Below are positions 42,225 through 59,160 of a stretch of DNA of 64,000 nt, piece by piece. The notes beneath the pieces were generated by a model. That model saw only the letters and a program-made list of their open reading frames with translations. It made no database searches and was not told the origin of the DNA. Every line of letters begins with the position of its first letter. Within the stretch, counting starts at the first letter, position 1. This DNA is from Gemmatimonadaceae bacterium (GTDB taxonomy: Bacteria; Gemmatimonadota; Gemmatimonadetes; Gemmatimonadales; Gemmatimonadaceae): assembly GCA_051859245.1 (NCBI GenBank), contig JBHYGA010000001.1:384001-448000 (forward strand), in the 5' to 3' direction. Made by a program: the position numbers and the translations under genes.

Positions 42225-43219
42225 GCAACGCACCACAGCGAATGCTGCCGGCGGACGTCGCGCGCGGCGTCGCGGATGACGCCGAACGAGCGGCGCTTGA
42301 GACGGTGTGGACCGCGCTTGACGCTGCTCGACCGGGTGCCGCGGTGACGCCATCGGAAAGCTCCGCCATGTGGGCGGCCATTGTGGCCGGTACATCGCAG
42401 CCAACCAATGTAGACGGGTCTGCGTCGCGGAGTGTGCTGGCCTCGCAACCACGTGGCATTCGTGGCGACCGACCCGCGTGGGCGCGACGACGTGTGCGTG
42501 CGTCCGCGCTGATGACGCTCGGCTTTGCGATCGTGGCTGTCGTCGCGGCGCGACCTGGACGTTGGCAGGAAGTGCAGGTGCCGCGTGCGCAGCAGCGCGT
42601 GGTTTCACTTCCGGATGGATCGCGGGTCACGCTCGATGCGGGTGCGCGCTTGCGCTATCGCGATGGATTCCGTGGCTGGTTCGGCCGTGCCGCAGACCGA
42701 CACACGGAACTCGAAGGCGCCGCGTACTTTGATGTCGCGAGCAATGGTCGACCATTCACCGTGCACACGTACAACGCTAGCGTGAGCGTGCTTGGCACCG
42801 AGTTCGAAGTGCAGTCGTGGTCAGCTGAGGGTACTGGTACGACGGTGGCGGTGGCGGAGGGGCGTGTAGCCCTCGCAGGCCACACTGCCAATGCGGTCAC
42901 GCTCAACGCTGGTCAGCGCGCGGTCGTAACGCACGCCGAGAATGCGCCCGATAGTGCTGCGCCGTTGCCGGTGGACCGTGTGGCCCCATGGCGTCGTGGA
43001 GGTTTCGTGGCGGTGAACGAACCGCTCGCCAGCGTCGTGGCCACGCTCGAACGCCATTTTGATACGAACATTGAACTGGCCGATGCATCGCTCGGACAAC
43101 AGCGCATCACGCTCTACTACCCAGTGGCCGCGCTTGATCGCGTGCTCGGTGATGTCGCTACCATGGAGTCGCTCACCCTCGAACGGCAACGCGACGGTTA
43201 CGTTTTACGACGACCATGA
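42221..43219 (+). CDS. FecR-family anti-sigma / transmembrane sensor
   Basis: TM helix, LPDGS.V.L, LEG.AYFDV, VLGT.F.V, V.EG.V; GTGA overlap with sigma. Confidence 0.9.
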   Translation: MSNAPQRMLPADVARGVADDAERAALETVWTALDAARPGAAVTPSESSAMWAAIVAGTSQPTNVDGSASRSVLASQPRGIRGDRPAWARRRVRASALMTLGFAIVAVVAARPGRWQEVQVPRAQQRVVSLPDGSRVTLDAGARLRYRDGFRGWFGRAADRHTELEGAAYFDVASNGRPFTVHTYNASVSVLGTEFEVQSWSAEGTGTTVAVAEGRVALAGHTANAVTLNAGQRAVVTHAENAPDSAAPLPVDRVAPWRRGGFVAVNEPLASVVATLERHFDTNIELADASLGQQRITLYYPVAALDRVLGDVATMESLTLERQRDGYVLRRP

Positions 43220-45909
43220 TCGTGCAAAGTGTGCGTTGCATGTCGCTGATCTGTGCGCTGTTATTGATTGTTACGCTGCCACTGGCTGCACAGCCGAATG
43301 AGTCCACGGATCGCCTGACGATCAGTTTGCGTGGTGTGCCGGTTGCTGAAGCGCTCGATCGGTTTGCCGCCGTCAGCGGCGTCAGCTTGGCATTTGATCC
43401 GTCCACCGTCGGAACCAGACGCGTTTTTTGTCAACTTGACAACGTCCGCGCGCTCGATGTGTTGCGCTGTATTGTGCGCGAGGCAGGTCTCGACTTCTAT
43501 CAGTTGTCGTCCGGTACCTACGTGGTGATCGCGTCCATCACACAGGCGCCGCAGATTGCGTCATTGGTGGGACGAATCACTGATGCGGCCAGCGGCGAGC
43601 CGATTACGCGCGCACGTGTGACCATCGATACAAACGAAGGGGCACGCGCGGTGAATGACGGCGGCACATTCCGTTTTGCCGCGTTGCTGCCCGGTCGTTA
43701 TCGTGTGCGCGTGCAAGCGGTGGGCTACCGACCGCTCGTGCGCGAGCTGGTTCTGGTGCCTGGGCGAGCAGAACGTTGGGCGCTGGCGCTTGATCCGCTA
43801 CCGGCCACGCTTTCGCTCGTGGAAGTCACTGGGCTTGCAATGAACACGACACCGCGCGCAGCGGCTGCGCAGCAGATCGTGCCCGACTCCCTGCCAGCCG
43901 TACTGGCATCTTCGGGGATGCTTCGCGCGGCCGCAAACCAACTTGGTATCGGACAACGCGCGTTGGCCGGTGATCTGCACATTCAGGGTGGTGAGGCGGG
44001 CGAACATCAGTTCCGCCTCGACGGCGTGCCTGTGTTTGATCCCGTATCGGTAGCCCGCATGTTCGGCGCCTTCGCGCCGCTCGCCATTCGGCAGCTCACC
44101 GTGCACAAAGCAGGATTCGGCGTGTCGCACGGGAGTTACACGGCCGGTGTGATTGATCTGGAGCATTCCATCGGCGCCGGCTCGGAGGCTATCACCACAA
44201 CCATTGATCCCATGTCGGCGTCTTTGCGTTACGCAGCGCGGGGAATGCTGCTGGGCAAGCGCACAACGGGCATGTTCGCGGCGCGACGAAGCCTGTGGGA
44301 TGTATCTCCGATGCCGTCGGTGGAACGCGCGCTGCACGGTTGGGCGCGGGTGGATCCGCTGCTGCTCGATGCAACGGCAGTGGGCGCACCGACCACGAGA
44401 GGTGATCCGTTTCAGGTCAGCAAAAGTACGCCGCAGTTGCACTTCGTGGATGTGCACGGCGCCGGACGCATGGAACTGGGCGCGTTTCAGTCACTGGCGG
44501 CGTCATTCTTTGTGTCGGATAATTCGGTGAGCGCCGATGTGCAGGCGACATCCGCACTCGAAAATCGCATGCTTGATACACGCGATGCCTACGCTTGGCG
44601 AACCGGTGGCGGCATGCTGCGGCACGATTGGATGCCGAACGCTCGTGTCCAGCAAATGCTTCGATTGCGCGTGAGCACGCATTCGCTCGCGCATCTTCAC
44701 TACGCACGCGAGGCCGGCGCCGCGCGCGTAGCGGACGTATTCGGCAGTAATGCGGCCGACCGGCGTGAGACAAACGGCGTGCAGGAATACGCGCTGGATG
44801 CCGTGACGCGTGTGTCGGCCACCGATCGTGGTGAGCTGGTGCTCGGCACGGAAATCGCGCGAACCGGCAGTCATGTCGATATGAACAACGGCGTGTTTCG
44901 CCCGATGCTGAATCGTTCGGGCGCGTGGCGTATGTCGCAGTTCACGGAGTGGCGGCAGCAGTGGGCGCATGGTCTGCAGGGTGACGCCGGCCTGCGGCTT
45001 ACCTGGGTTCCGACCTTCGCCACGGTATACGCCGAGCCGCGCGTGTCACTGCGCGGAGAGCACGCGCGCGCAGACGATGTGATCGCCTGGCGCGTATCGG
45101 GCGGTGTGCATCGACAGTTCGTATCTCAGTTCGAGTTACCGGCGTTGGGTCCAACTGCGGTCGCGAGCGGCGTGCGGTTCTGGCTGCCGGTCGACGGCAG
45201 CATTCGACCTGCCGAATCGTTTCACACCACGAGTGAGTTTGTCTGGCGACACCAACGTGGCTTTGAGGTGCACACGGAAGCGTACTACAAATGGTTAAAC
45301 AGTGTCCCAGCCCTTGATTTTGGTATTCTGCTCGGCGCGGGTGGTGCGATGCCGCACGATATCCCGCAGGCCATGTTCGTGGGGCGTTCGCGCGGACACA
45401 CGTTTGGCGCCGGGGTACGCGTGACGCAGCGCGCACAGTGGGCGACCGCGACGCTCGGCGTTGACGGCGGACAATCCGTGCGCACGTTTCCTGGTCGATT
45501 TGGCGGACGTGAACAGCGCACCCCGTGGAACGAATCCCTGCGCATCACCTCGTCGATTGAATCGCAACTGCCCGGGAGCGTTGAACTCTCGTTGCAGTCA
45601 CGTCATGTGTGGGGCCGAACGTGGGCGTTGCGCCGTGCGTACTATGATCTCGCGATTGACGGGCTGCCAGTGAACACACCCGGCAACGATGCGCTCCCTG
45701 CGTGGCATGAGGTAGACGTCGCGTTTGCACGCGCGCTGCGCATTGGGAGTGCCCGCACGGTGCTGTCACTCTCGGCGTTGAATGTGTTGGGGCGCTTAAA
45801 CACAATCGACCAGTGGCTGGTTCCCGGTTTCACTGACAATTCGGTCGCGCGCGAATCGCGGACCGCAGTCGGTCGACAATTATTGCTGACAATGCGCATC
45901 GCGTACTGA
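43216..45909 (+). CDS. TonB-dependent receptor/transducer (STN-like N-terminus, carboxypeptidase-regulatory-like domain, plug, barrel)
   Basis: Signal peptide; I.LRGVP..EAL; G.ITDA.SGEP; GG...LDGVP plug; terminal aromatic residue; ATGA overlap with FecR. Confidence 0.85.
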   Translation: MIVQSVRCMSLICALLLIVTLPLAAQPNESTDRLTISLRGVPVAEALDRFAAVSGVSLAFDPSTVGTRRVFCQLDNVRALDVLRCIVREAGLDFYQLSSGTYVVIASITQAPQIASLVGRITDAASGEPITRARVTIDTNEGARAVNDGGTFRFAALLPGRYRVRVQAVGYRPLVRELVLVPGRAERWALALDPLPATLSLVEVTGLAMNTTPRAAAAQQIVPDSLPAVLASSGMLRAAANQLGIGQRALAGDLHIQGGEAGEHQFRLDGVPVFDPVSVARMFGAFAPLAIRQLTVHKAGFGVSHGSYTAGVIDLEHSIGAGSEAITTTIDPMSASLRYAARGMLLGKRTTGMFAARRSLWDVSPMPSVERALHGWARVDPLLLDATAVGAPTTRGDPFQVSKSTPQLHFVDVHGAGRMELGAFQSLAASFFVSDNSVSADVQATSALENRMLDTRDAYAWRTGGGMLRHDWMPNARVQQMLRLRVSTHSLAHLHYAREAGAARVADVFGSNAADRRETNGVQEYALDAVTRVSATDRGELVLGTEIARTGSHVDMNNGVFRPMLNRSGAWRMSQFTEWRQQWAHGLQGDAGLRLTWVPTFATVYAEPRVSLRGEHARADDVIAWRVSGGVHRQFVSQFELPALGPTAVASGVRFWLPVDGSIRPAESFHTTSEFVWRHQRGFEVHTEAYYKWLNSVPALDFGILLGAGGAMPHDIPQAMFVGRSRGHTFGAGVRVTQRAQWATATLGVDGGQSVRTFPGRFGGREQRTPWNESLRITSSIESQLPGSVELSLQSRHVWGRTWALRRAYYDLAIDGLPVNTPGNDALPAWHEVDVAFARALRIGSARTVLSLSALNVLGRLNTIDQWLVPGFTDNSVARESRTAVGRQLLLTMRIAY

Positions 45910-45913
45910 GTCG

Positions 45914-45941
45914 CTGGTCATCAGTGCGCGCTGTTGCATAG
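45914..45941 (+). promoter_or_regulatory. Second copy of the putative ECF promoter, upstream of the fasciclin gene
   Basis: ctggtca-tcagtgcgcgctgtt-gcatag. Confidence 0.65.
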
Positions 45942-46007
45942 TGAAGGTGCATGTGATGTGCAGTGCATGCACATCAGCTCTTCACTCTTCAGCAAGGAAA
46001 CCGTCTG

Positions 46008-46925
46008 ATGCGAACTCTGATTTCTTCGCGCCGTTCACGGCTGCGTGTGCTGCCCGCTGCCATTGCAACCACGCTGCTGCTTAGCGCGTGTGGCGATGAC
46101 GATGTCGTTGCACCAGAACCACCCGCAACAATTGTGGCGGCCGCGCAAGCGACGCCTGATCTGAGCACGTTGGTAACGGCGCTCACGGCCGCTGATCTTG
46201 TTGGCACGCTGAGTGGTCCTGGTCCCTTTACCGTGTTCGCACCGGTGAACAGCGCGTTTGCCGCCGTTCCAGCCGACGTACTGCAGCGTCTGCTCGAAAC
46301 CGGCAACGTGAACATCTTGTCCAAGGTGCTGCGCTACCACGTGGTGCCAGGACGCGTGCTGGCCTCGGATCTGCGTGAAGGACAAGTGGTCACGACTGTT
46401 GAAGGCACCACGTTACGCATCACGCTGGCAGGTGGCGCACGCGTGAACAACGCGCGCATTACCACCACCGATATTGAGACGGGCAACGGTGTGGTGCACT
46501 TGATCGATGCGGTGATGACCGAAAGCCTCGATGTGGTTGACGTGGCCACGATTCGTGGCTTCAGTTCGCTGGTGAATGCCGTTGCGACGGCCGGCCTGGT
46601 GAATGCGCTGCGCGGCAATGGCGCCGGTCAGGGCATCACGGTATTCGCGCCCACCAATGCCGCGTTTGCGGCGCTCGGCACACTGCCTGCCAACCCCACG
46701 CTCACGAGTGTACTCACCGCGCACGTTGTGAACGGTCGCGCACTGTCAACCGGGTTGACCAACAATCAGGTGGTACCGTCACTGCAGGGTGGCAATCTCA
46801 CCATTCAGACGGGACCGCTGCGTGTGCGTGGTGTTGGCAACACAACGCCGCTCAACATCACGGCTACCGACATTGTAGCCAAGAACGGTGTGATTCATGT
46901 GATCGACGGCATTATTCTGCCGTAA
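46008..46925 (+). CDS. Lipoprotein with two fasciclin (FAS1) domains
   Basis: Lipobox LSAC; TVFAP.N.AF twice; NGV.H.ID twice; AAGGA RBS. Confidence 0.93.
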   Translation: MRTLISSRRSRLRVLPAAIATTLLLSACGDDDVVAPEPPATIVAAAQATPDLSTLVTALTAADLVGTLSGPGPFTVFAPVNSAFAAVPADVLQRLLETGNVNILSKVLRYHVVPGRVLASDLREGQVVTTVEGTTLRITLAGGARVNNARITTTDIETGNGVVHLIDAVMTESLDVVDVATIRGFSSLVNAVATAGLVNALRGNGAGQGITVFAPTNAAFAALGTLPANPTLTSVLTAHVVNGRALSTGLTNNQVVPSLQGGNLTIQTGPLRVRGVGNTTPLNITATDIVAKNGVIHVIDGIILP

Positions 46926-46960
46926 ACATCTCGTACACTACGAACGATGGTGTGGGTTGC

Positions 46961-46993
46961 ATCTCCAACACCGGCGCCACCGGTGTTGGAGAT
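46961..46993. terminator. Perfect 14-bp stem-loop between convergent genes
   Basis: atctccaacaccgg-cgcca-ccggtgttggagat. Confidence 0.7.
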
Positions 46994-47045
46994 CTGTTCG
47001 TGAGCGCATTGTGATGCCTGTAACGCCGTAGACCGCACTACGCGA

Positions 47046-47519
47046 TCAGGACGTCCGCTCCATCGTCGCGATCGCGTCGGCGAGGCTACTCTCCTGCGTG
47101 CTCGCCACAACCACACCGCCGCCCTGCGACAGCACTTCGCCGGCACGCTCCGCGCTCTGCGCGTCTACCAATGCTACGAGCATGGACGAGTTGAAGAGCA
47201 GCCCGTCGCCCATTTGCTTGAGCAACGCGTCAGGAAAGCCGCGGTCAATGAAGTAGGCGGCGAGTGCGCCGCCAGCCGCCAACGTCAGCGTGCCGATACC
47301 CGGAAGAATGAGGCCAGCAACCGCGCCCACCAGCGCGCTCTTGCCGATGCCCCAGTCCTGCGACTCGGTAAACTCCACCTCTCCGCCCTCGTCACGCGTG
47401 ACAATTGCCACGTTTCCGAGCCCGATCGAAGCGGCTTTGAGCATAGCTTCACCGGCTTCGGCGCCGTTCAGCGTGTTAAAACTGGCAATCAGAATGTGGC
47501 GCGTGGTGGAATCAGACAT
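47046..47519 (-). CDS. DUF1269-like glycine-rich membrane protein
   Basis: GAVAGLI.PG.G..AAGGAL, D.GF.D..LK..G..L...SS. Confidence 0.7.
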   Translation of the reverse strand: MSDSTTRHILIASFNTLNGAEAGEAMLKAASIGLGNVAIVTRDEGGEVEFTESQDWGIGKSALVGAVAGLILPGIGTLTLAAGGALAAYFIDRGFPDALLKQMGDGLLFNSSMLVALVDAQSAERAGEVLSQGGGVVVASTQESSLADAIATMERTS

Positions 47520-47556
47520 GACTTCTCCAAGAAAGGTGAGCGATAGAGTTACACAG

Positions 47557-48852
47557 CTATTGGCTCAGTACCCGCCACGCACGCACATGTGGCACATCGT
47601 CCTCATCGATCCACACGCCGAGCACGCGTTCTCGACTCACAACATGCGGCGTGACACCCGGCGGCAGTACAACACGGGCGATTGCTTGACCACCGGCGTC
47701 AAATACCAGAAAGCGCTGCGCGTCCGTTGGCCAGACACTCGGCGTCTGCGCCCACAACGTGCCGTCCTGACCAATCTGCAGCCCATCGTGATACGGAAAC
47801 ACCGTCGCAAACCGCCAGCGGCGGCGCATGGCTTCCCACTCCACCTTCACTGACGCGGGTATCGGCTGGCTCTCCACGGACGCCGCAACTTCTGCGCGCA
47901 CGCGATCTGCGGCATCAGTCGGCACCGGTTCGGGGCTGACCGCGACGCGCGTTAGACGTGAAAGCGCAGCGTCACGGTATTCGCGCAACTCAAAGCGTTC
48001 GTTGGTGCCAATCACCAGACGCGATCCCTTCCATGCAACGTCCGTTGAGCGACCGTAGCGCACATAGTCGCGATCCGGGTAGCTCTCGCCCTGCTCGGTG
48101 GTGATCGTTTCGAATCCTTCAACGTCAGGAACCAGCGCAATGGTATCAATGCGCAGTATTGCGTTACTGTCAGCCGCCGTTGGCGTGAGTACCGTCACCA
48201 GCGCGAAGGTATCTCGGCGCACGCGGTCATCCATCACGGCAGACGGGATCCAGCGCCGACGTACGGATGCCAGAAACCGAGAGTCGCCGAGCAGGGCGAG
48301 TGGCCGCAGATCGTCGCGGTCGTCTGCACGCGGATACATAATCTGCTCCACATAGTCACCGGCGCTGGTGAACAATGAAATGCGACGCTGCGACGCATCA
48401 AATACGGCCAGGCGTCCGTCGTCGAGCAGTTGTATCCGTTGCACAAAGTCAACTTCACCCGGTCCACGTCCAACCGGCATCATTGTTCGGAGGAATGCGC
48501 CATCGGCCGAATATTCCCGCACATCGCGATGTCGCGCATCGACCACCAGCAACCGACCGTCCGACAGCTCGGTCACCAATCGAATACTCGAAAACGCATT
48601 CGCCGGGTTGTCTCCGTCGATACGCAGTATCGGTGAGGTATCAAGCGTCCACGTTGGCAAGGCCGCAATAAACGTGGAGTCCTGTTCCACGATTGCAGCG
48701 CCAGCGCTATCACGTGTGACAACGCTGTTCGCCGCGCGATCGGATGGTGCACCGCACGCGGACAACGCGGTGCACGCGGCCGTGAGCAGTGTAAATACAC
48801 GTGTACCTGAACAGGTCTCACGTTCGCGGAATCGACCTATCGATTGGTGCAT
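47557..48852 (-). CDS. Six-bladed beta-propeller lipoprotein
   Basis: Lipobox LSAC, RDSAG..IVE, G.GPGE, D.DDVP.V C-terminus. Confidence 0.75.
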   Translation of the reverse strand: MHQSIGRFRERETCSGTRVFTLLTAACTALSACGAPSDRAANSVVTRDSAGAAIVEQDSTFIAALPTWTLDTSPILRIDGDNPANAFSSIRLVTELSDGRLLVVDARHRDVREYSADGAFLRTMMPVGRGPGEVDFVQRIQLLDDGRLAVFDASQRRISLFTSAGDYVEQIMYPRADDRDDLRPLALLGDSRFLASVRRRWIPSAVMDDRVRRDTFALVTVLTPTAADSNAILRIDTIALVPDVEGFETITTEQGESYPDRDYVRYGRSTDVAWKGSRLVIGTNERFELREYRDAALSRLTRVAVSPEPVPTDAADRVRAEVAASVESQPIPASVKVEWEAMRRRWRFATVFPYHDGLQIGQDGTLWAQTPSVWPTDAQRFLVFDAGGQAIARVVLPPGVTPHVVSRERVLGVWIDEDDVPHVRAWRVLSQ

Positions 48853-48900
48853 GCTCCAAAGTACTGCGGGGGCGCGAGACGTGCGCGAGCGCTGTGCTGG

Positions 48901-51900
48901 CTACTCTGCACGCATGACCGTCATGGGCTGCACGCGACTGGCGCGCCAGGCCGGACCGGCCGCCGCGGCTATGCCGGCGAGTGCCATGCTCACGAGCGCC
49001 ACGGTCCAGACCGCTGCGTCGCGTGGTTCTACCCCGAACAGCAAGGAGGCCATCAGACGCGTGACCCCCCACGAGACCGCGGCCCCCAACGCGAGGCTCA
49101 TCGCGACGAGCCGCCCGGCACCGCTGAGTACGTAGCGACGCAGGCGTGCGGGCGGCGCACCCAGCGCGGCGCGAATGGCAAAGTCACGCCGCCGCTGCTC
49201 CACGCTGTAGTTGAGAATGCCGAACAGCCCCGCGAGCGACAGCAGCAGCGCCACGCCGGCCAACGTCGCGAACAGGGCAAAGATGAAGCGCGGCCAACCG
49301 ATGCTCTCGCGCATCACGACCTGCATTGGCTTGACACGCGAGACAGCGACGCCGGGATACACTGCGCGCAACGCCTGTTCAACGTCAGCTGCAATCACGG
49401 CCGGGTTCGCTTGCTGCGTTCGGATCACCAGGCTGTAGCCGACCGCTTGAGGATGCCGCTGCGCGAATGTCCAGTACGCCTCCGGTCTCGGTTCCGTGAG
49501 TGGTCCGAAGTTGCGAATATCGCTCACGACGCCCACAATCTCGATCGGTCGCTCGCCCAGGAAGAACCGTTTGCCGAGGATATCACCGTCCGGGAAGTCG
49601 CGCGCGGCGAGCGCCGAATTCACGACGACGCGTTGTATCGTGTCACCGTCCATCATGTCTCGCGCATCGAGCAGTCGACCGGCCACGAGTTGCTGACCCG
49701 TTGCCGCGAAGAACCCGGGCGTAATGTTGCGCGTTTCAATGAGCGGACGCTCAGTGGGCGGCACCTCTGGTCGTCCTTCGTAGCGCACCCAGGCGTTCCA
49801 GCCCCATTCGTTGTAGGGAAGCTGCGAAATTGCACCGGCCGCCTCAACGCCGGGAATGCGCTGTATCGCCTCCAACGCCGGCGTGAGGAACGCTGTCGCC
49901 GCGCGATCGGCAGGAAAATCCGTCGGTGCAACGCGAACGCGCAGCGTGAGCACACGTGCTACATCAAAGCCCGGATCTTCATTCATCGCGCGCACAAAAC
50001 CCTTCGTCACCAAACCGGCGGAAATCAGCAGCGTCACGGCGAGCGCGCCTTCAATCACCACCAGTGCCGCAAGCGTACGATGCTGGTGCTGTGCACCACT
50101 CCCGCGTCCGCCGCGCAGTACGTCTGCCGGAAGTGCCAGGGCGGCTCGCCACGCAGGCGCCGCAGTGCCCGCAAGTGCAGCGACTATTGCCGCAAGCAGT
50201 GCGACGCCTGCCGTTCGCAGATCAACAGCGGCGTACTCAAGCTGCGTGATGCGAGTTGATCCAAGCGCGACGACCATCTTGAGTGCCAACAACGCAAGTC
50301 CCAGCCCCGTCACCCAGCCGCACAGCGCAATCACGATGCCTTCGGCAAAGACCGGGCGCATCACTTCCCAGCGCGTTGCACCGAGCGCGGTGCGCACACC
50401 GAGTTCGCGTTGACGACTGATGCCGCGCGCCAGGAGTAAACTCGAGACATTGATCACCGCAATAATGAGTACAACGAACGTCGCGACGATCAGCAACGCC
50501 AAGGAGCGTCGCGCTGATCCGGCCGCGTCGTGCACCAGGGGTGTGACCGCAATGCTGTGACCTTCGAGCTCGGGATACGCTTCCAGCAGTGGCGCAAACC
50601 GCTGAATAAGCGCGGCCTGCAGCCCCTCCGGTTGCTGTTGCGAACCAAGTCGGCCAAATACCCGCAGAAAATTACTCGTGCGTTGTCTCAGCTCCGATTC
50701 GGAGAATCGCATGGGCACCCACAGCTCGCCCGCGTATGTCGTTCCGGAGTTAGTAATGCGAAACCGAGGCGGCAGCACGCCGACGACTTCGTGTGGCTCA
50801 CCATCAAGGCGGAGTGACGAGCCCACAATACCCGGACTTCCACCGAGATGACTGCGCCAGTACTCGTAGCTGACGACGACTACCGCCGGTGCATCCGGAA
50901 CATCGTCTGATGGCAGGAGCACACGGCCGTGCAGCGCGCGTGTGCGGAGCACATTGAAAAACTGACCAGATGTTCGAATGACAAAGGACGGTTCGTACCG
51001 ATCGCCAAGCGCCAGCAATCGCGACGTGGACGCGAACGCAGCGATTCCCTCGGCGCTCGGCTCTCCCGCAATGTCAACAAAGTTCGGTGCGGAGAATGGA
51101 AGCTCGCGCGACGAGGGCAGTGCGCGAAAGATCGAGACAAGACGATGCGCTTCGTCAAAGTCCACGGGCCGCAACAGCACGCGATCGGCGACGCTGTAAA
51201 TGGTGGCGGCGCTGCCAAGTCCAATCGCCATGCAGAACACGCACGCTGCAAACACCACCGGGGCGCGCCGCAACGTGCGCCAGGCGCGACGCAACTCGCG
51301 CAGCGCGTCACCCACTGCGTGTCGGCTCGCGGGCTCTGGCTCCGCGACCTCGCGTGTCGTGCCTGGCGCGATGGCGAGCAGCGATGGTGATCGCAGCGCT
51401 CTCAGCAGCTCGGCGACCGACGACGGGCGCAGCGCTGGATCCTTCTCGAGACATTTCAGGATCAGCGCGTCGAGCGCCGGTGGGATATCGGCACGTCGTG
51501 TGCGTAGCGGTGCTGGTGGCTCGGCGACATGCGCACGTGCGAGTGCCGAGGGCGTAGGACCGGCGAACGGTGGTACGCCGACGAGCATTTCGTAGGCCAC
51601 CACCCCGAGCGAATACAGATCGACGCGATGGTCCGCGCCCGGATCCGCCGCAAATTGCTCCGGTGACATGTACCGCGGCGTGCCAAGTGAGAAGCCCGCG
51701 AGTGTCAGATCCGACGGCGTGCGCATTGGAACCGGTGTGTTACCCAATCGACGCGACACCGCCTTGGCGATGCCAAAGTCGGCAACGACTGCAGCACTGC
51801 CGGTGAGCAGAATGTTGCCAGGTTTGATATCTCGATGCACTACACCAGCCGCGTGCGCACTTTCAAGTGCCTGCGCAACGTCTTCAAGAATCGCCACCGT

Positions 51901-52254
51901 TTCGCGCACCGACAACGGTCCGCGCGTGAGACGTTCACTCAGCGATTCGCCGCGTACGAGTGGCATGACGAAGTACGGCACATCGTCCACGGTGCCGGCG
52001 GTGAGTAGCGGAACGATGTTGGGGTGCTGCAGCGACGCGAGCAATGCGATCTCGCTTTGAAAGCGATCACGTGCATCCACGCTGTCGAGACGGCTCGAGA
52101 CACGCTTGATGACCACGCGTCGGTTCAGCGTGCGCTCGCGGCCCACCAACAACTCGGCCATACCGCCGCCGCCCAGCGGCTCAAGATCCGCATAGCGATC
52201 GCGCAGTTTGTTAGCGAACGCCAGCAGGTCAGAGTCGGGAGTGGGTTCGGTCAT
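48901..52254 (-). CDS. Ser/Thr protein kinase fused to an ADOP-type duplicated MacB/FtsX ABC permease
   Basis: Kinase GGGGMA, VIK, HRDIKPGN, DFG, GTPRYMSPE, DLYSLG; permease NVSSLLLAR...RE.GVR.ALGA, DPGFD, VEQRRRDFAIRAALGA, PAWRASRV.P. Confidence 0.9.
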   Translation of the reverse strand: MTEPTPDSDLLAFANKLRDRYADLEPLGGGGMAELLVGRERTLNRRVVIKRVSSRLDSVDARDRFQSEIALLASLQHPNIVPLLTAGTVDDVPYFVMPLVRGESLSERLTRGPLSVRETVAILEDVAQALESAHAAGVVHRDIKPGNILLTGSAAVVADFGIAKAVSRRLGNTPVPMRTPSDLTLAGFSLGTPRYMSPEQFAADPGADHRVDLYSLGVVAYEMLVGVPPFAGPTPSALARAHVAEPPAPLRTRRADIPPALDALILKCLEKDPALRPSSVAELLRALRSPSLLAIAPGTTREVAEPEPASRHAVGDALRELRRAWRTLRRAPVVFAACVFCMAIGLGSAATIYSVADRVLLRPVDFDEAHRLVSIFRALPSSRELPFSAPNFVDIAGEPSAEGIAAFASTSRLLALGDRYEPSFVIRTSGQFFNVLRTRALHGRVLLPSDDVPDAPAVVVVSYEYWRSHLGGSPGIVGSSLRLDGEPHEVVGVLPPRFRITNSGTTYAGELWVPMRFSESELRQRTSNFLRVFGRLGSQQQPEGLQAALIQRFAPLLEAYPELEGHSIAVTPLVHDAAGSARRSLALLIVATFVVLIIAVINVSSLLLARGISRQRELGVRTALGATRWEVMRPVFAEGIVIALCGWVTGLGLALLALKMVVALGSTRITQLEYAAVDLRTAGVALLAAIVAALAGTAAPAWRAALALPADVLRGGRGSGAQHQHRTLAALVVIEGALAVTLLISAGLVTKGFVRAMNEDPGFDVARVLTLRVRVAPTDFPADRAATAFLTPALEAIQRIPGVEAAGAISQLPYNEWGWNAWVRYEGRPEVPPTERPLIETRNITPGFFAATGQQLVAGRLLDARDMMDGDTIQRVVVNSALAARDFPDGDILGKRFFLGERPIEIVGVVSDIRNFGPLTEPRPEAYWTFAQRHPQAVGYSLVIRTQQANPAVIAADVEQALRAVYPGVAVSRVKPMQVVMRESIGWPRFIFALFATLAGVALLLSLAGLFGILNYSVEQRRRDFAIRAALGAPPARLRRYVLSGAGRLVAMSLALGAAVSWGVTRLMASLLFGVEPRDAAVWTVALVSMALAGIAAAAGPAWRASRVQPMTVMRAE

Positions 52255-52502
52255 GGCCGTCTGATAGACAGACTAACCGAAAGGTTTGACGGCGCTCCGC
52301 GTGGAGGGGTGAACTGCGGTGCGAACGTGACGAACCGTTCGCGTGAAGACTACCACCGAGCGCGCGCTGTCTTCAGGGGGTAGATCTTCTTCCGCAATGT
52401 CCTACAGAAAATTGCAGCCGATGCTGCCAGCTGTACTGAACGGTGCGCGTTAGCGTCATGCACGGTTCATTTTCTCGCTCACCATCTCTCAGGAGGATTC
52501 AT

Positions 52503-53141
52503 ATGCGACGAACGCTGCTTCTGGCGGGCACTGCTTTGGTAATGCTCAGCTCGCCTGCATCAAGCCACGCGCAACAAATCATCACCTTCAACGCTGACCC
52601 GTTTGCCGGCAGCAATGCTCGCGAAACACCGGGTCGTCAGATCGTCGGCAACGAGCTCTTTACGCCGTTCAATATTGGCACCGATGTCTTTGCGTTTAAT
52701 CAGGGCATCTTTGGTATGGGCGACGTGATCAAGTTTGCAAGCGGTCCGATCAATGAGATACCGCAGACCGACGTCAACGCGATCGTGCTCAATACCTTCG
52801 ACAATGACGGGGATCCACTCACGCCGTTCCTTGCGGGTACGGCGGCCAATCTCATCGCCGAACGTGTCACGACGTCTGGCGCCGGGGTGTTCATCTATTT
52901 CAACAGTGGGCTCGATCTTGCACGCCTCGTGTACTCAACTGATCTGAGTGATAACACTGCCGATCTGAAGATTCTCGCTCGCCTGACCAATGTGGCGGGG
53001 GAGAGCGGACGTGAACAGATGGCAACGTTCACCGAAGAGAACTTCCGCATAGTTCCAGAACCCGCCACGCCGCTGCTCTTGCTGGTCGGCCTGGCAGGAC
53101 TCTTTGCGCGGAAGGCAGCGCGCAACATGGTGTCGTTGTAA
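52503..53141 (+). CDS. PEP-CTERM sorting-domain protein
   Basis: Signal peptide; VPEP + hydrophobic helix + basic tail (RKAAR); AGGAGG RBS. Confidence 0.85.
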   Translation: MRRTLLLAGTALVMLSSPASSHAQQIITFNADPFAGSNARETPGRQIVGNELFTPFNIGTDVFAFNQGIFGMGDVIKFASGPINEIPQTDVNAIVLNTFDNDGDPLTPFLAGTAANLIAERVTTSGAGVFIYFNSGLDLARLVYSTDLSDNTADLKILARLTNVAGESGREQMATFTEENFRIVPEPATPLLLLVGLAGLFARKAARNMVSL

Positions 53142-53223
53142 TCTGGGTATTCGTGTAGATGAGGCGATTCACTGGTGGTGCGGTGCGTGTGTCGCACCAC
53201 CAGTGAATCGCTGCAAGGCGCTG

Positions 53224-54168
53224 CTAGCGGCTTGCGTGCGCGCGAAAAAACTCCATCACTCTGGAGTGCACGATGGTCGACTGCTCGATGTGTGGCAGAT
53301 GTCCGGCGGAATCCACCGGAAAATACTCGAGTGAGGGGATCAGGCTCCGGATCGCTTCCGCGCGCGCAATGGGTGTGGTTTGATCCTGTTTGCCCCAGAC
53401 AAGCAGAACAGGTACGCCGGTCTTGCTCACCGACGCAAAGAGGGCGGGGAAGTCGGTGCGACTCATGGTGAAGGCGCTCCGCAATAACGCGCGCCCAAAC
53501 CCGTCGTACCGCATTTGCGGACGGTACTGTTCAATCCACGTAGGGAATCGCTCCGGATGCAGAAAGTCACTCAGCTGTCCGTCTGCCATCCCGGGCACTT
53601 GTGTCACCTGCCACACCCACGGCCCCACGACTGGCCACGCCATGAAGGCCGGCATGGTACGCGACTCGCTGGCGGGATCCATCAGCGTGAGCGTGCGCAC
53701 CCGCGTGGTGTGCGTCGACACGAAATGTGACGTGACATACCCGCCGAACGAGAGGCCGATCAGATCCACCGGTGTTCTTATCTTGAGCGAGTCAAGCAGC
53801 TCATTCAGCTGCGCGTCATACATCGCGCCATCGTACGCCGCGTCGGGGCGATCTGACCATCCGCGTCCGAACATGTCGTAGCGAATCACGCGCAGACCGG
53901 CTGCGCTGAGTGCTGCAAACGTGGAGTCCCAGATATACGATGGCACCGAGAATCCATGCACCAGTACGACCACGCGTCCGGTATCCGGTCCGGCTACGTC
54001 ATAGTGCGTGGTGCCACCGGAGAGCTTCACGAAGCGCCCTGGGGCTTGAGCGCGCGCGTCGTCATTCAGCGGCCCCTGTTCCGGGTTCCTCACCGACCCA
54101 TAGATCGCCAGCGCCGCAATCAAGGCAAGTAGTACCAACAGTGCACCGCGCCGCCGTTTCAGAGCCAT
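53224..54168 (-). CDS. Alpha/beta hydrolase with N-terminal membrane anchor
   Basis: LVHGFS, D.FGRG.S, GLSFGG, WG..D, AGHLP. Confidence 0.9.
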   Translation of the reverse strand: MALKRRRGALLVLLALIAALAIYGSVRNPEQGPLNDDARAQAPGRFVKLSGGTTHYDVAGPDTGRVVVLVHGFSVPSYIWDSTFAALSAAGLRVIRYDMFGRGWSDRPDAAYDGAMYDAQLNELLDSLKIRTPVDLIGLSFGGYVTSHFVSTHTTRVRTLTLMDPASESRTMPAFMAWPVVGPWVWQVTQVPGMADGQLSDFLHPERFPTWIEQYRPQMRYDGFGRALLRSAFTMSRTDFPALFASVSKTGVPVLLVWGKQDQTTPIARAEAIRSLIPSLEYFPVDSAGHLPHIEQSTIVHSRVMEFFRAHASR

Positions 54169-54171
54169 TCT

Positions 54172-54201
54172 TGTGTGTTGTTGTGTGTGTTGTTGTGTGT
54201 G
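54172..54201. repeat. 12-bp tandem repeat, 2.5 copies (TGTGTGTTGTTG)
   Basis: Direct reading of the sequence. Confidence 0.85.
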
Positions 54202-54232
54202 ATGAAATGGCGTGTCCCTGCCAGGTGTCGCG

Positions 54233-54949
54233 TTATTCACCGTACCGGCGCACACGATAACGCACGGCGGTCATCGGCGTTGGCACATCGTTGTTGATCG
54301 ATGCTTCCACCGTTGTTGGTTGCAGCCAATCGCTCCAGTCGGCGCTTGGCGTGGGGGTGCGTTTCAGTGGCAGCGCGTAGAGCTCGGTGTGTTTGCCTTC
54401 AAGGCGTACGACGAGCGTGCGACGGCCGGCACGATACAACGGTTGCTGCACCACTGGAATGATCGTGTGCGCACCTTCAACGCGCGTGCGTGAGGGGAGC
54501 GGCGTGCCTTCCGGGCGCGTGCTTTGCGTATGCACTTCCACGCTCAACCATCGCGAGTTCAGATCGGTGGGCAGCTCGGTCGTTTTAAATCGCAACTCCA
54601 TTTCGAGCGTGGCCAGCGCGCCGTCGTACTCCAACGGGGCCTCGCGCATTTGCAACAACGACCACGCACCGCCCGCGAGCAGTACCAGCAGCGCGGTTAA
54701 TCCCAGAACCGCAGCAACGAGTTGTTTGGTGCCTTCACCGGCCGGTGCGGATCGCACAAACAGTGACACGCCCACAACCAGGCCGACCAGCGCGCACAGG
54801 ATCGCCACGCCAATGACGAAGTAACCCGCCGCACCTTCACGATCTGTGATGTTTGCGATGCGCGCGAACAGCGTGCCGCCGCCGAGGCCGAGCAACAGAC
54901 CGGCGATGGCACCTCCCAGCGCGTAGAGTACTCCGATAAGTGGGCGCAT
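54233..54949 (-). CDS. Hypothetical membrane protein (3 TM plus soluble domain)
   Basis: Hydrophobic N-terminal half with REGAAGYF motif. Confidence 0.7.
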   Translation of the reverse strand: MRPLIGVLYALGGAIAGLLLGLGGGTLFARIANITDREGAAGYFVIGVAILCALVGLVVGVSLFVRSAPAGEGTKQLVAAVLGLTALLVLLAGGAWSLLQMREAPLEYDGALATLEMELRFKTTELPTDLNSRWLSVEVHTQSTRPEGTPLPSRTRVEGAHTIIPVVQQPLYRAGRRTLVVRLEGKHTELYALPLKRTPTPSADWSDWLQPTTVEASINNDVPTPMTAVRYRVRRYGE

Positions 54950-55041
54950 GCGTGGCGGAGAATATGCAGCGGGCACGCGCCGATGTCATTATGATGGTGT
55001 CCGTTGGCCAAACGTGCGGCCGCCGTCTGCGTTGGTCCCGT

Positions 55042-55605
55042 TCACGCCCCCCGCACCACATACTGCAGCACCACCGCTCCAGACGCGAACTCGCGTCGGC
55101 CGGTGAGCGTCAGGTCTACATGCCTTGAGAGGCCCGCGAGCAAGTTCGGCCCGTGGCCGGCAATCCGTGGCTGCACGACAAACTCATACTCATCAATCAA
55201 TCCCAACTCGGCCAGCGCCAGCGGAAGCGTCACGCCGCCCGTGGAGATCGGCCTGCCCGGTTCGCTCTTGAGCTGTCGCACAAAGGCCGCGAGATCGCCA
55301 CGTACGAGTGATGCGTTCCAATCCACATCGGGTAGCGTGTTCGACACCACAAACTTTCGCGCCGCGTGAATGGTGTGTGCGAACGGCTCCATCCACGCGG
55401 GCATCCACTCAGGGCGAACGCCCGTCTCCGCTACTGGACGCCACGCGTCTTCCATCATGCCGTACGTCACGCGTCCGAGGATCATTGCATCAACGGCGGC
55501 GATGTTGCTGGCATGGAAGTGATGCATCTCCTCATCGGGCATCCCGGCGCGATGATCGACGCATCCGTCAAGCGTGATATTGATGGAGTAGCGGAGTGGG
55601 CGCAT
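55042..55605 (-). CDS. Dihydrofolate-reductase / RibD C-terminal family protein
   Basis: ITLDG, LGRVTY.MM, K.VVS.TL, LIDEY...V.P...G.G. Confidence 0.9.
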   Translation of the reverse strand: MRPLRYSINITLDGCVDHRAGMPDEEMHHFHASNIAAVDAMILGRVTYGMMEDAWRPVAETGVRPEWMPAWMEPFAHTIHAARKFVVSNTLPDVDWNASLVRGDLAAFVRQLKSEPGRPISTGGVTLPLALAELGLIDEYEFVVQPRIAGHGPNLLAGLSRHVDLTLTGRREFASGAVVLQYVVRGA

Positions 55606-55713
55606 GGCGTACGTCCTGAAGTGCGGGTGGGCGGGGGGAGGAACCGTATTCTACGCGCTGTCCCTGCGCAAAGCCTTGCTGATTTCACTCACCGGGCGCA
55701 ATCTAGGCCGACC

Positions 55714-56286
55714 ATGCCTGCAACGAAGACAAAGAACGAGTTGATCTGGAAGGTGGACGGTCCGTTCGAAGTCGCCGCCGATCATCGGCGACTCTATGTC
55801 CGCGAGACTGTTGAATCGGAAGTGTTCGGCGCGGTTGTCATGGGAGCCCTCACGATTGGCATGGCGCTCTTTGGGTGGAAACTTGTGCACGCCACCGGCG
55901 CTGGATCCCGAATATTCGGTGGGTTGCTGCTCGTGCTTGCCACGCTGATTGCGGCGGTCGCGTTGCGACAGGTGTTGGCGGGGCTCGGTCTGATCAAGTG
56001 GAGTCGTACGCCACTCCTTGTGTTCGATCGCGGTGACAGCGCGTCGATGCCGCCGGCCATTGAGTACGGGCGCAAACGTTTGCTCACGTCCACGATTCGT
56101 TGTCTCTCAACGCGACCCTCCACGGTTGGCAGCAAGCACGACCTCAAGCGGCATATTCTTGTGGCTGAACTGCACGACGGCTCGGAGGTGGTGCTCACCG
56201 TGGACCAGACGCCGGATTGGACGGCGCACTACGCGAATCGAGGGGCGCGCTGGCTTGGCCTGTCGTACCGAGCTTTCCGGGGATGA
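55714..56286 (+). CDS. Hypothetical membrane protein (2 TM)
   Basis: 3' part of ORF 55366..56286, which fills an otherwise empty gap. Confidence 0.6.
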   Translation: MPATKTKNELIWKVDGPFEVAADHRRLYVRETVESEVFGAVVMGALTIGMALFGWKLVHATGAGSRIFGGLLLVLATLIAAVALRQVLAGLGLIKWSRTPLLVFDRGDSASMPPAIEYGRKRLLTSTIRCLSTRPSTVGSKHDLKRHILVAELHDGSEVVLTVDQTPDWTAHYANRGARWLGLSYRAFRG

Positions 56287-56489
56287 TGCGGCGCGCCGAC
56301 ATGCCTAGGCGCGCAACACCATCTGCACAGAGGTATCCACGTCAAGCACGAACCGTCCGCGCCCTTGGTTCGGTGCCGTGCAACCTCCGATAATCGCGAT
56401 CCACTCGAACCGGCCGCTCAGTCCGCCATCGGGAACGCTGGCGCTCATGCGTTGACCGCACGCCCGCTTATCGCTCGCTCAGTGCTCGC

Positions 56490-57584
56490 TCATCGCACGC
56501 GATAGGCCACAATACTGGGCACGTCTTCCGCATCGTGCTCAATGCTGATCATGATGCCGCTGCGCAGAAACAGCACGGGGCGCGCGGTGGCAAGCGTGAC
56601 CGTTTTGACGAATCCCGAGTCGAGGTGAAAGACGTCGGCTACTGGTGGTTCGTCGCTCAACACATCGCGCGTGGCCCACACATGACCGCGTGTGTCCAGC
56701 GTGAGATGCGTATAGGCCGGCATGCGCGCTGCAATCTGTGCGTGCTCGAGCAGTAACTCGGTTGGAACGGTGCACGGCTTTTTCCCGCGCAGCTGCATCG
56801 TGCGTCCAGGGCCGAGCTCACGCGCGGCGAGTGCGCGATCGGTGGGTCGGCGTGTGGTGTCGCGTGTGAGCGCGCGCGGCGGCGCATTGGGTGTCCGCAC
56901 GGTGATGCTGAACTCGCCGACAGAAGAGATGACGGTGTCGCCACGCGCGTCCCACGCGAGCAGCGGATGAAACACGGGTTCCACGGGATAGCCGATGACA
57001 TCGCACACCAATTCGATCTCGCCGGTCTCGGCGGGTGCAATGGAATCGAGCGTTTGCCATCTGCCTCCGCTGTCGACAAGCAGACGCACAGTTGCATTCG
57101 AGCGAGGCGGCGTGCTGCCCACGACTGAGGTATCGGAGCGGAACCGAAAGCGGAACGGACTCCCGGAGCGCCTTGGGTACTCTTCTCGAAATCGTCCGTC
57201 CGCCGTGTATACCACGAGTTTGTTTTTCTCGGCGTCGTGTACATGCACCGCGCCATCAGGAGCAACGGCCAGCGTGAGCGGGAAGAGCAACTCACCCGGA
57301 CCGGGCCCGCGCGTGCCCCAGCTGTCAATCTGAGTGCCGGTTGAATCGAGCACCGCAATACGTCCACCGGTTCGGTCAATCACCAACAGGCGATCGTTGG
57401 CATCAACCACGATGTCATTGCGCGACAGTGACTCGAACATGAAGGTCGTGTCGTTGGCCCCGCCGACGTGCCAGAGACGCTCCATGTTCGATGGCACGAG
57501 CGCATCGGGGGTGAGGCGCGGCGGCTCGTCCGCACACGCCACGAGCAGGCCACTCAGCAGGAGGCCCAGTGCACCCGTGCGCAA
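56490..57584 (-). CDS. Six-bladed beta-propeller lipoprotein (start uncertain, TTG assumed)
   Basis: Lipobox LVAC, G.GPGE, D.EDVP C-terminus. Confidence 0.72.
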   Translation of the reverse strand: MRTGALGLLLSGLLVACADEPPRLTPDALVPSNMERLWHVGGANDTTFMFESLSRNDIVVDANDRLLVIDRTGGRIAVLDSTGTQIDSWGTRGPGPGELLFPLTLAVAPDGAVHVHDAEKNKLVVYTADGRFREEYPRRSGSPFRFRFRSDTSVVGSTPPRSNATVRLLVDSGGRWQTLDSIAPAETGEIELVCDVIGYPVEPVFHPLLAWDARGDTVISSVGEFSITVRTPNAPPRALTRDTTRRPTDRALAARELGPGRTMQLRGKKPCTVPTELLLEHAQIAARMPAYTHLTLDTRGHVWATRDVLSDEPPVADVFHLDSGFVKTVTLATARPVLFLRSGIMISIEHDAEDVPSIVAYRVR

Positions 57585-57702
57585 TCGCGCGGGGCGCGTA
57601 TATTCCCCCTCAGAGGTCGGCCAGGCGCACGGGATTCGGCTCTGCGGTGTCGAGAATTTTGGCGCTCTTTGCACGGGACACCATTCTCCAGGATCGGTGT
57701 AT

Positions 57703-58368
57703 ATGCGTTTCATGTCGAGACAGCTCACGCCGCGAACCGCGGCCCTCGCCACTGCGATGGTGGCCAGCAGCTTGTTGCTGGGCTGTGCAACCGGGCGAGC
57801 GCCATTACCCGCCACGCACGCATCCGTTTCCTCGCTGCCGACAGACGGTGCCATCGCGTTTGGCGCTATTGATGAGCTCGGCGCAGAGCCGGTGGTGCAG
57901 GTGCGCGACTTTCGGGTGCTGCGCACGGTCTCGGTACTCGGCCACTACGACGAGAATGCCACGTACGGACTGCGTGCAGAAGTGCGACCCGACGGCGAAA
58001 TCACGTCGCCGCGCAGGCTTGGCGATCACCGCTTGTACATCAATACGTTCGTTGTGGGCGCCAATGGTGGTTTCCGGCGCGCATCCGTAGGAACGCGCGA
58101 CAATCCCCTCGTGGTGGATTACTTGTTCGACCCGAACGCGTGCCTCAAGGGGCCAACGTGTTCGCCGTATCGAGCCATCACGCTCGGCATTCCAGACTCG
58201 GTGCTGCGAAACTCTCGCGATGGTTTGGTCGTGCTGTTTGAACGTCAAACGCCTACGCAGTGGACGATCTCGTTGTCATCCAAACTGATCGCCGCGTATC
58301 TGAATACGGTCGACTCCGTTTCCGCGGCACGTCGCAGCCAGCAGGTGTTCCGCGGCATTGATCGCTGA
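57703..58368 (+). CDS. Hypothetical lipoprotein
   Basis: Lipobox LLGC; Cys pair; 3' part of ORF 57334..58368. Confidence 0.62.
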   Translation: MRFMSRQLTPRTAALATAMVASSLLLGCATGRAPLPATHASVSSLPTDGAIAFGAIDELGAEPVVQVRDFRVLRTVSVLGHYDENATYGLRAEVRPDGEITSPRRLGDHRLYINTFVVGANGGFRRASVGTRDNPLVVDYLFDPNACLKGPTCSPYRAITLGIPDSVLRNSRDGLVVLFERQTPTQWTISLSSKLIAAYLNTVDSVSAARRSQQVFRGIDR

Positions 58369-58448
58369 GGCGCGCGGAACGAGGTGAACGAGTCAACGTT
58401 CGTCTCTCTGCAACAGCGCAGAAGGGTGTGGCAAGAGGATCGACAAGG

Positions 58449-59012: not shown

Positions 59013-59160
59013 GTGCATGATCCGCGTGTCCTCGGCGATAGGGGGTGCGTGCGCATGCGTGAACATGCGCCATATCGCCGAGTTGTCCGTCACCATTTCG
59101 CTGCGCCCCGTAGCAGCGTGTCGCTTCCGCATGGACGGTACGCTCGGCGATGGGGCCGAG

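Follow-up and report, generated by a model that had tools for sequence, protein, structure and literature searches.

A Hanks-type serine/threonine kinase fused to an ADOP permease in Gemmatimonadota, and a possible sensor role for the permease

Can a duplicated permease serve as the sensor of a protein kinase? The question is raised by a gene of a Gemmatimonadaceae bacterium (assembly GCA_051859245.1), which lies on the minus strand at positions 48901..52254 of the 64,000-nucleotide stretch analyzed here (the window; positions 384,001 to 448,000 of contig JBHYGA010000001.1, hereafter C1) and in which a Hanks-type Ser/Thr kinase domain is joined in one polypeptide to a complete permease of the ADOP family. 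Soil Acidobacteriota and Gemmatimonadota have ADOPs in large numbers; to our knowledge, the function of no ADOP has been tested so far.

The list of open reading frames (ORFs) and the translation gave a single ORF of 1117 aa with an ATG start, upstream of which only six more codons are open (open frame, 1123 aa). Together with Pfam and NCBIfam they confirmed the order, kinase and then permease, that a first-pass annotation of this DNA had assigned to the gene (Table 1). Residues 21-281 matched the Pfam family Pkinase with 146.6 bits against a cut-off of 31.7 (E 1.2e-42) and contain the Gly loop and the catalytic residues and motifs of a Hanks-type Ser/Thr kinase; the closest solved structure is PknB of M. 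tuberculosis (E 5.4e-45). The complete motif set reported by that annotation for residues ~20-290 is indeed there: the kinase is of the RD type (HRDIKPGN) and has the VVIK lysine, DFG and SPE. When 30 full-length fusions were aligned, K50, E68, H140, D142, K144, N147, D159-F160-G161, T192 and P198-E199 were invariant in all of them, and HRD, the Lys motif, DFG and [SAT]PE were all present in the 28 proteins of the window's class that were checked. Within a 24-member core clade, the mean pairwise identity was 0.75 for the kinase domain and 0.23 for the linker that follows it, which measures 27 aa (residues 291-317) where ~25 aa had been estimated. The catalytic site appears intact and conserved, and the kinase looks active. 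A Pfam scan found no sensor domain of the cytoplasmic type on the fused kinase.

Residues 318-1117 correspond to model positions 2-803 of the 803 of TIGR03434, the ADOP family, at 671.8 bits against a cut-off of 622.3 (NCBIfam), and Pfam placed two stretches of MacB_PCD and two of FtsX in the one chain, the two-unit make-up of an ADOP; the claim of a complete two-fold MacB-periplasmic and FtsX permease was therefore borne out. Hydropathy outlined eight hydrophobic segments (334-352, 585-603, 640-658, 681-699, 731-749, 990-1008, 1042-1060 and 1080-1098) and two large loops of 232 and 235 aa. According to charge counts, the short loops and the stretch preceding the first transmembrane (TM) helix are rich in Arg and Lys, which puts the N-terminus, and hence the kinase, in the cytoplasm. 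The topology prediction that had been called for thus returned eight TM helices, two periplasmic loops and a cytoplasmic kinase.

The closest solved relatives of the membrane part are MacB structures (5lil best, E 2.9e-10; range to 6e-5), together with 5xu1 and YtrF. The Pfam and PDB matches contain the four-TM FtsX unit, the periplasmic core domain and the conserved TM2-TM3 helix of ATP-binding cassette (ABC) permeases of type VII; a cognate ABC ATPase is neither fused nor encoded alongside. Mean pairwise identity in the core clade was 0.60 and 0.66 for the two periplasmic domains, 0.80 for TM2, TM5 and TM6, and highest of all regions (0.85) for the segment 611-635 between TM2 and TM3; the corresponding segment between TM6 and TM7 (1016-1040) scored 0.70, and among 112 ADOPs of every type the two segments hardly vary. 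As the major coupling helix of MacB is positioned between TM2 and TM3 (PMC5985334, accessible text), we infer, from position, that 611-635 and 1016-1040 may act as coupling helices. Alignments of fusions and ADOPs also revealed conserved residues in the C-terminal part (R1028, G1032, P1101 and A1105).

Next, we examined how widespread the fusion is. Among the 120 best clusters of the 90% protein collection, 32 combined a kinase with FtsX/MacB_PCD domains, 30 of them at full length (1114-1202 aa, 30-71% identity); after clustering at 50% identity, fusions made up at least 23 of the 150 top-ranking representatives. A search of 401 sampled genomes of the phylum, scoring two candidates per genome so that the counts are a floor, returned 15 matches spanning both halves in 13 genomes, own genome included; the sample contains three unpublished genomes, none of which is among the 13. 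All named members belong to Gemmatimonadota and are called either 'ADOP family duplicated permease' or 'ABC transporter permease'. Orthologues at 70% identity were found in five metagenome loci. Regarding the junction, the ORF lies without any difference in a single contig (255 kb) of run X1, X1 being probably the source DNA and so not independent, and a 161-base contig from X2, an unrelated farm-metagenome run, crosses 51252-51412 with 13 substitutions and no gap, and so spans the linker, for which the first-pass annotation had asked for read support. The strongest support for the junction is the conserved full-length relatives, whose existence also disposes of the lack of homologs that had been named as a possible refutation. 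The kinase-ADOP architecture is real and conserved, and the fusion is under selection. That two genes were joined by an artefact of assembly or annotation has a practically negligible chance: nothing was found in its favor, and it is already refuted by 30 full-length relatives from independent assemblies, by the 13 genomes and five metagenome loci, and by an independent contig that crosses the junction without an indel.

Other searches added little. A census of the phylum with a junction-only query did not extend the list, since matches to the kinase alone reach the scores of distant fusions, and a scan of genome contigs with alignment A1 picked kinase patterns and returned mostly plain kinases. 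The same-genus genome G341 has no syntenic counterpart of the fusion gene. The GC content of the gene is that of its flanks, so there is no sign of recent transfer.

The point at which the kinase is attached can be compared with the other ADOPs of the genome (4.70 Mb, 99.87% complete), which contains seven ADOP-like genes of full length (five score above the cut-off) and 41 Pkinase matches, and in which only this gene is a kinase-ADOP fusion. Three of the seven ADOPs come directly after a PadR gene and each bears an N-terminal prefix of 80-105 aa; three have neither PadR nor prefix. The kinase is joined ~15 residues before TM1, the same point as the prefix of the PadR-paired ADOPs, in agreement with the proposal that it stands in place of the ADOP prefix domain, and the fused ATPase of MacB also precedes an amphipathic helix and TM1 (PMC5985334, accessible text). 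Prefixes of this sort have been described as HAAS domains, which are joined to TM domains resembling FtsX that bear MacB periplasmic domains and are always paired with a PadR-like regulator, and the HAAS-PadR pair has been proposed to be an alternative two-component system (mSystems, 2024; PMC11237479, accessible text). The HAAS profile PF22564 gave E-values of 0.017 and 0.21 with two of our PadR-paired prefixes and no match with the third, values too weak to confirm these prefixes as HAAS; one of ten prefixed ADOPs from the collection was matched (E 0.0025). Pfam found no HAAS match in the fusion protein, and the gene, having neither this domain nor an adjacent PadR, is not a HAAS-PadR dyad. 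A search for extra N-terminal domains on other ADOPs with long open frames in the 401 genomes produced only GC-rich read-through or ordinary prefixes.

Seen from the kinase side, eight of the 11 own-genome kinases nearest the two fusion kinase clades described below have a TPR (5), PD40 (2) or TolB_N (1) module after the kinase, so that the ADOP occupies the place of a sensor or interaction module; the other three have nothing recognizable there. As regards the modules, this agrees with the earlier statement that kinases of this type usually end in a TM helix plus TPR or propeller modules.

We then looked for partners encoded nearby. Of the 53 matches to MacB models and six matches to PadR in the genome, none lies in the window (C1:384001-448000), so the usual ADOP-PadR adjacency is absent; no ABC_tran, HlyD or PadR match was obtained in the 14 neighboring ORFs (42038-61323), and no histidine kinase or response regulator was detected among the scanned neighbors. 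The annotation was right that no ATPase, membrane-fusion protein or PadR gene is close by, and the gene is an orphan in the sense that no ABC ATPase gene adjoins it, a situation compatible with an ATPase acting in trans. The flanks of the other fusion loci examined contain no ATPase gene either. No flank family recurs in more than four of 23 fusion loci, and none recurs at the five 70% orthologue loci. The 1.5-kb flanks of the 19 loci of bare ADOPs nearest to the fusions (15 of them from the 401-genome search) had no match to an ATPase or adaptor; one has a divergent PadR, two adjoin kinase-fusion genes rather than stand-alone kinases, and one shows a partial kinase match at a cut edge.

The same genome contains a bare ADOP (851 aa, C1:167333-169888) followed by an HlyD-family adaptor (414 aa) and a MacB-type ATPase (236 aa) (locus L124, C1:165340-169888). 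Some ADOPs are accordingly parts of ordinary tripartite-style pumps and not orphans, and 'orphan', when said of ADOPs, is a description of gene order and not of mechanism. The general picture of ADOPs as orphan permeases usually paired with PadR was thus upheld for the pairing in three of the seven genes and contradicted by this operon. At C5:541186-549609, six single MacB/FtsX-type permease genes stand in tandem beside one MacB-type ATPase gene, which suggests that in this organism one ATPase could serve several permeases. As a separate observation, a bare ADOP (806 aa) is divergent from a soluble-looking GAF-PAS-PAS histidine kinase (791 aa) at C4:653999-658918 (locus L125), which might be a further case of an ADOP connected with a signalling gene.

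The search for relatives also uncovered a second class of fusion. Its members, of 1180-1211 aa, have an XRE-type helix-turn-helix (HTH) domain N-terminal of the kinase: Pfam matched HTH_31 or HTH_19 below the cut-off in four of them, two out of another three exceeded the HTH_31 cut-off of 27 bits (28.0 and 28.2), and a profile of four of the N-termini retrieved only Cro/XRE-like chains from the PDB (best E 0.0028). The kinases of the HTH class are non-RD (21 HCD and one HGD, n = 22). Kinase identity is 52-69% and 54-62% within the two classes and 36-44% between them, lower than the 44-51% that the fusion kinases share with unfused own-genome paralogues. In a kinase tree (IQ-TREE quick search with SH-aLRT support, 33 own-genome kinases included), the 11 window-class kinases formed a clade (support 99) inside a 17-row clade (99) that includes six unfused paralogues, whereas 17 kinases of the HTH class, together with two in which no HTH was called, formed another (99), which grouped with five other paralogues (81). 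As the HTH class has a different kinase lineage, the fusion arose at least twice. In an ADOP tree of 112 rows (FastTree), 24 proteins of the window's class formed one clade (100) within a 40-row clade, which also holds 13 bare ADOPs (nine of them in an inner 36-row clade) and one HTH-class protein; three other HTH-class proteins were placed elsewhere, and the kinase label requires at least four changes on this tree. We conclude that kinase and ADOP were fused on two or more occasions and that some loss or shuffling came afterwards.

The HTH class also extends to a second phylum, that of a genome labelled Acidobacteriaceae (G401). Junction-spanning matches were found there in three of 301 genomes, with seven candidates scored per genome, and all three ORFs (1124-1185 aa) consist of HTH_31, Pkinase, two MacB_PCD and two FtsX.

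Inspection of the regions upstream of these genes disclosed a common element, CGAAC-N4-7-[CT][CG]GAACACTT, located ~60-112 nt before the start of the HTH-class genes at 11 of 13 loci; a twelfth locus has a one-base variant and the remaining one has no element (element loci: L114, L116-L121, L123, L133-L135 and L156). Written as CGAAC-N4-7-YSGAACACTT, it is found upstream of HTH-kinase-ADOP genes in two phyla. None of six upstream regions of the window's class contains it. A genome-wide scan of five genomes gave eight sites, compared with none for a reversed-pattern control. Six were the ones seen above upstream of HTH-class genes, one precedes an HTH-kinase-ADOP gene of genome G333 (1205 aa, the third of its kind there) and the last lies ~1.7 kb upstream of a prefixed ADOP; the genome of the window, from which the HTH class is missing, has no site. 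In the simplest reading, the element is probably an operator for the fused HTH, that is, an autoregulatory site; a dedicated promoter is the alternative. Under both readings alike, and as judged from these sequences, the ADOP-kinase unit of the HTH class is wired to DNA.

Taken together, our data lead us to propose, with roughly even chances of being right, that the window's gene encodes a membrane receptor-type Ser/Thr kinase with the ADOP as its transmembrane sensor or transducer. The ADOP would detect an envelope cue, either a ligand or substrate of the periplasmic domains or its own working cycle, and the conformational change would be relayed through TM1/TM2 and the pre-TM1 helix to the kinase, which would sit on its flexible 27-aa tether at the site of the MacB ATPase and of the regulator-binding prefix of PadR-paired ADOPs. 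The active RD kinase would then phosphorylate itself and cytoplasmic targets. The direction of information flow, from ADOP to kinase, as well as the signal and the target proteins, we infer from sequence comparison. This reading is favored because the fusion was made independently at least twice, because the permease sits in the sensor place of the kinase and prefixed ADOPs pair with a transcription factor, and because one fused lineage bears a DNA-binding head with its own operator, the output of that sister class being visibly, if the element is read correctly, transcriptional. Moreover, no fixed neighbor is needed, as expected of a self-contained signalling protein, and there is a precedent in the same superfamily, in which the permease BceB signals to the kinase BceS.

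Several observations weigh against a sensor role. The tether is variable and would be flexible, and rigid mechanical coupling is not evident. As a pseudo-dimer, an ADOP would bring one kinase per molecule, and trans-autophosphorylation would need two molecules to meet. The 13 bare ADOPs that share the 40-row clade with the fusions indicate that the ADOP can function without a kinase. The conserved coupling-helix segments suggest a conserved cytoplasmic partner, most simply an ABC ATPase, and the operon in which another ADOP accompanies an adaptor and an ATPase raises the prospect that the permease may be a working machine and not a pure sensor.

These last points are the basis of an explanation that we consider unlikely but best placed among the alternatives, namely that the ADOP is a working type VII permease with an ATPase encoded elsewhere and that the kinase, fed by cytoplasmic cues, switches it in cis by phosphorylating its loops or the ATPase. 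It would account for the coupling-helix segments being the most conserved part, and it agrees with the adaptor and MacB-type ATPase found with one ADOP of the genome and with the single ATPase gene that stands beside six permease genes on C5, so that sharing of ATPases looks normal in this genome. Two residues next to coupling helix 1 on the cytoplasmic side also deserve attention: position 604 is Ser in 24 of 26 members of the kinase clade compared with 8% of the bare sister group, and position 627 is Ser or Thr in 26 of 26 compared with 54%. S604 and T627 could be cis phosphorylation sites, or they could simply be inherited, as these positions belong to one clade. Regulation in cis is, however, hard to reconcile with a kinase that itself lacks a cytoplasmic sensor domain, with a sister class whose HTH and private operator point to an output on DNA and not on the permease, and with the absence of a linked ATPase gene from every fusion locus examined.

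A distinctly less probable explanation is that the protein senses activity in the manner of the Bce modules of Firmicutes (BceAB, BceS and BceR): the ADOP and an ATPase in trans would remove or shield an envelope-active compound, and the kinase would report the workload and adjust the response by phosphorylation. This is a special case of signalling from ADOP to kinase, one in which an ATPase is required. In the Bce modules, a duplicated MacB-type permease senses for a kinase that has no sensor (PMC5985334, accessible text; PMC4513084; PMC10314905); BceB is a fusion of two MacB-type units, and BceS cannot sense alone and needs BceB together with active BceA (PMC5985334, accessible text). The retained coupling helices and the MacB-type ATPases of the genome fit this explanation as well. 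The differences are nevertheless considerable, given that our protein is one polypeptide from another phylum, with a fused Ser/Thr Hanks kinase instead of a membrane histidine kinase and with eight TM helices and two periplasmic domains instead of the 10 TM helices and single domain of BceB, and that neither an ATPase gene, at any fusion locus examined, nor a response regulator gene is linked to it. The gene set of a Bce-type module, a 10-TM BceB-type permease with BceA, BceS and BceR, was not found in the protein and its scanned neighbors.

It is very unlikely that the ADOP is just an anchor that positions the kinase at the membrane or at an envelope machine with no signal passing between the two parts; the long and poorly conserved tether would suit such a role, but a module of 800 aa and eight TM helices with conserved periplasmic domains (0.60 and 0.66) would be a costly anchor, and two kinase lineages have independently taken the same module.

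A wider idea may be entertained, which we regard as tentative and more probably wrong than right. Type VII ABC permeases could have given rise, in the ADOPs, to transmembrane receptors of general use, in which mechanotransmission of the MacB style would run inward from the outside and the cytoplasmic head would be exchangeable, being in one case a prefix that binds PadR, in another a Hanks kinase and in a third an HTH with a kinase. The HTH form would then be a sensor, a kinase and a membrane-tethered transcription factor in one chain, controlling itself through its private operator, while the window's protein would reach its targets by phosphorylation alone.

When compared with known systems, the fusion resembles the prefixed, PadR-paired ADOPs in its full-length family match, in its two MacB_PCD and FtsX units, in the absence of an adjoining ATPase gene and in having an N-terminal cytoplasmic module just before TM1; it differs in that a Hanks kinase of 300 aa takes the place of the 80-105-aa prefix and in that no PadR gene is its neighbor. 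With MacB and the other type VII systems (MacAB-TolC, FtsEX and LolCDE; 5lil, 5nik and 5gko) it shares the topology and the conserved TM2-TM3 segment, and its layout is like that of MacB, which has its own N-terminal ATP-binding domain before the amphipathic helix and TM1 (PMC5985334, accessible text). It departs from MacB in having a protein kinase in place of the ABC ATPase, two units per chain, no adaptor or ATPase gene, and low similarity. PknB and the TPR or PD40 kinases of this genome have the same succession of N-terminal kinase, linker and membrane or sensor part, with one TM helix plus PASTA, TPR or propeller repeats where the fusion has an eight-TM permease.

Each half falls into an established family, and public databases do contain the combination, but under permease names only. 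Signalling by prefixed ADOPs has already been put forward in print, as the HAAS-PadR dyad, in a paper whose accessible text does not mention a kinase fusion (PMC11237479). We found no paper on a kinase-ADOP fusion in the open literature, subscription journals and supplements lying outside the search, in line with the annotation's remark that no characterized protein of this architecture was known. What would be new is a Hanks-type receptor kinase whose sensor is a type VII ABC permease module, a claim to which we give an equal chance of standing or falling.

If true, it would add a new kind of sensor module to the bacterial Ser/Thr receptor kinases. As the ADOP has been fused, twice independently, to an enzyme with an easy read-out, phosphorylation, the question of pump or sensor becomes a bench experiment, and the sister class, with its HTH and private operator, is a reporter system for finding the signal. 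Because the database names refer to the permease only, the kinase goes unnoticed.

Table 1. Positions in the window of the parts of the kinase-ADOP gene and of two adjacent features.
Feature	Position	Strand	Basis
Whole gene, Hanks kinase and ADOP, 1117 aa	48901..52254	-	ORF list, Pfam, NCBIfam
Cytoplasmic Ser/Thr kinase domain, residues 21-281	51412..52194	-	Pfam Pkinase, E 1.2e-42
Variable linker between kinase and membrane part, residues 291-317	51304..51384	-	Mean pairwise identity 0.23
Arg-rich helix and TM1, residues 318-352, start of ADOP match	51199..51303	-	NCBIfam, hydropathy, charge counts
First periplasmic MacB-like core domain, residues 353-584	50503..51198	-	Pfam MacB_PCD, best stretch 338-550; 232-aa TM1-TM2 loop
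First FtsX module, TM2-TM4, residues 585-699, including 611-635	50158..50502	-	Pfam FtsX 590-704
Cytoplasmic linker between the halves, residues 700-730	50065..50157	-	4 K/R vs 1 D/E; identity 0.68
TM5 and second periplasmic MacB-like core domain, residues 731-989	49288..50064	-	Second MacB_PCD stretch; 235-aa loop
Second FtsX module, TM6-TM8, and conserved C-terminal tail, residues 990-1117	48904..49287	-	Second FtsX stretch, hydropathy
Downstream gene, 431 aa, six-bladed beta-propeller family (DUF5128/NHL-like)	47557..48852	-	Weak Pfam match, Atlas score 0.97
Divergent intergenic region upstream of the fusion, 188 bp	52255..52442	.	Sequence

The region upstream of the fusion gene has features of its own. 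The upstream regions of four orthologues (~70% identity) have in common with it a conserved footprint at ~52306-52342, made of two TTCGTC-like words ~21 nt apart, and the orthologue regions also share a CAAAC ... TAnnCT stretch nearer the start. The TTCGTC-like words (52306-52342, minus strand) may be a candidate regulator site. Repeated GAAC/GTTC words also occur upstream of the fusion. A promoter scan of 46900-53300 detected no sigma-70-like site, and a look for RNA runs containing the gene found none.

On the other side, the propeller gene begins 48 nt after the fusion gene, and the gap contains no terminator-like site; the two may be co-transcribed here. We considered the propeller gene as a conserved partner and discarded it, since neither the flanks of 18 other fusion loci nor those of the five orthologues at 70% identity contain it. 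It is weakly similar (26% over 125 aa) to the gene after a PadR-ADOP pair, and its six-bladed family has at least 20 paralogues in the genome. Copies were noted at 47557-48852 and 56490-57926 of the window, at C1:40430-41650 and at C8:51274-52323; copies immediately follow both the kinase-ADOP gene and a PadR-ADOP pair, and one is ~2 kb from a MacB-type ATPase/permease pair.

Finally, two features of the wider surroundings were recorded. The divergent gene at 52443-53141 (232 aa, no Pfam match) resembles clusters of PEP-CTERM-type sorting-signal proteins, with protein-atlas scores of 0.97-0.98. At 42038-46925, a FecR-like anti-sigma gene is followed by a gene for an 897-aa CarboxypepD_reg protein and by one with two fasciclin domains, a cluster that looks like surface signalling or uptake.

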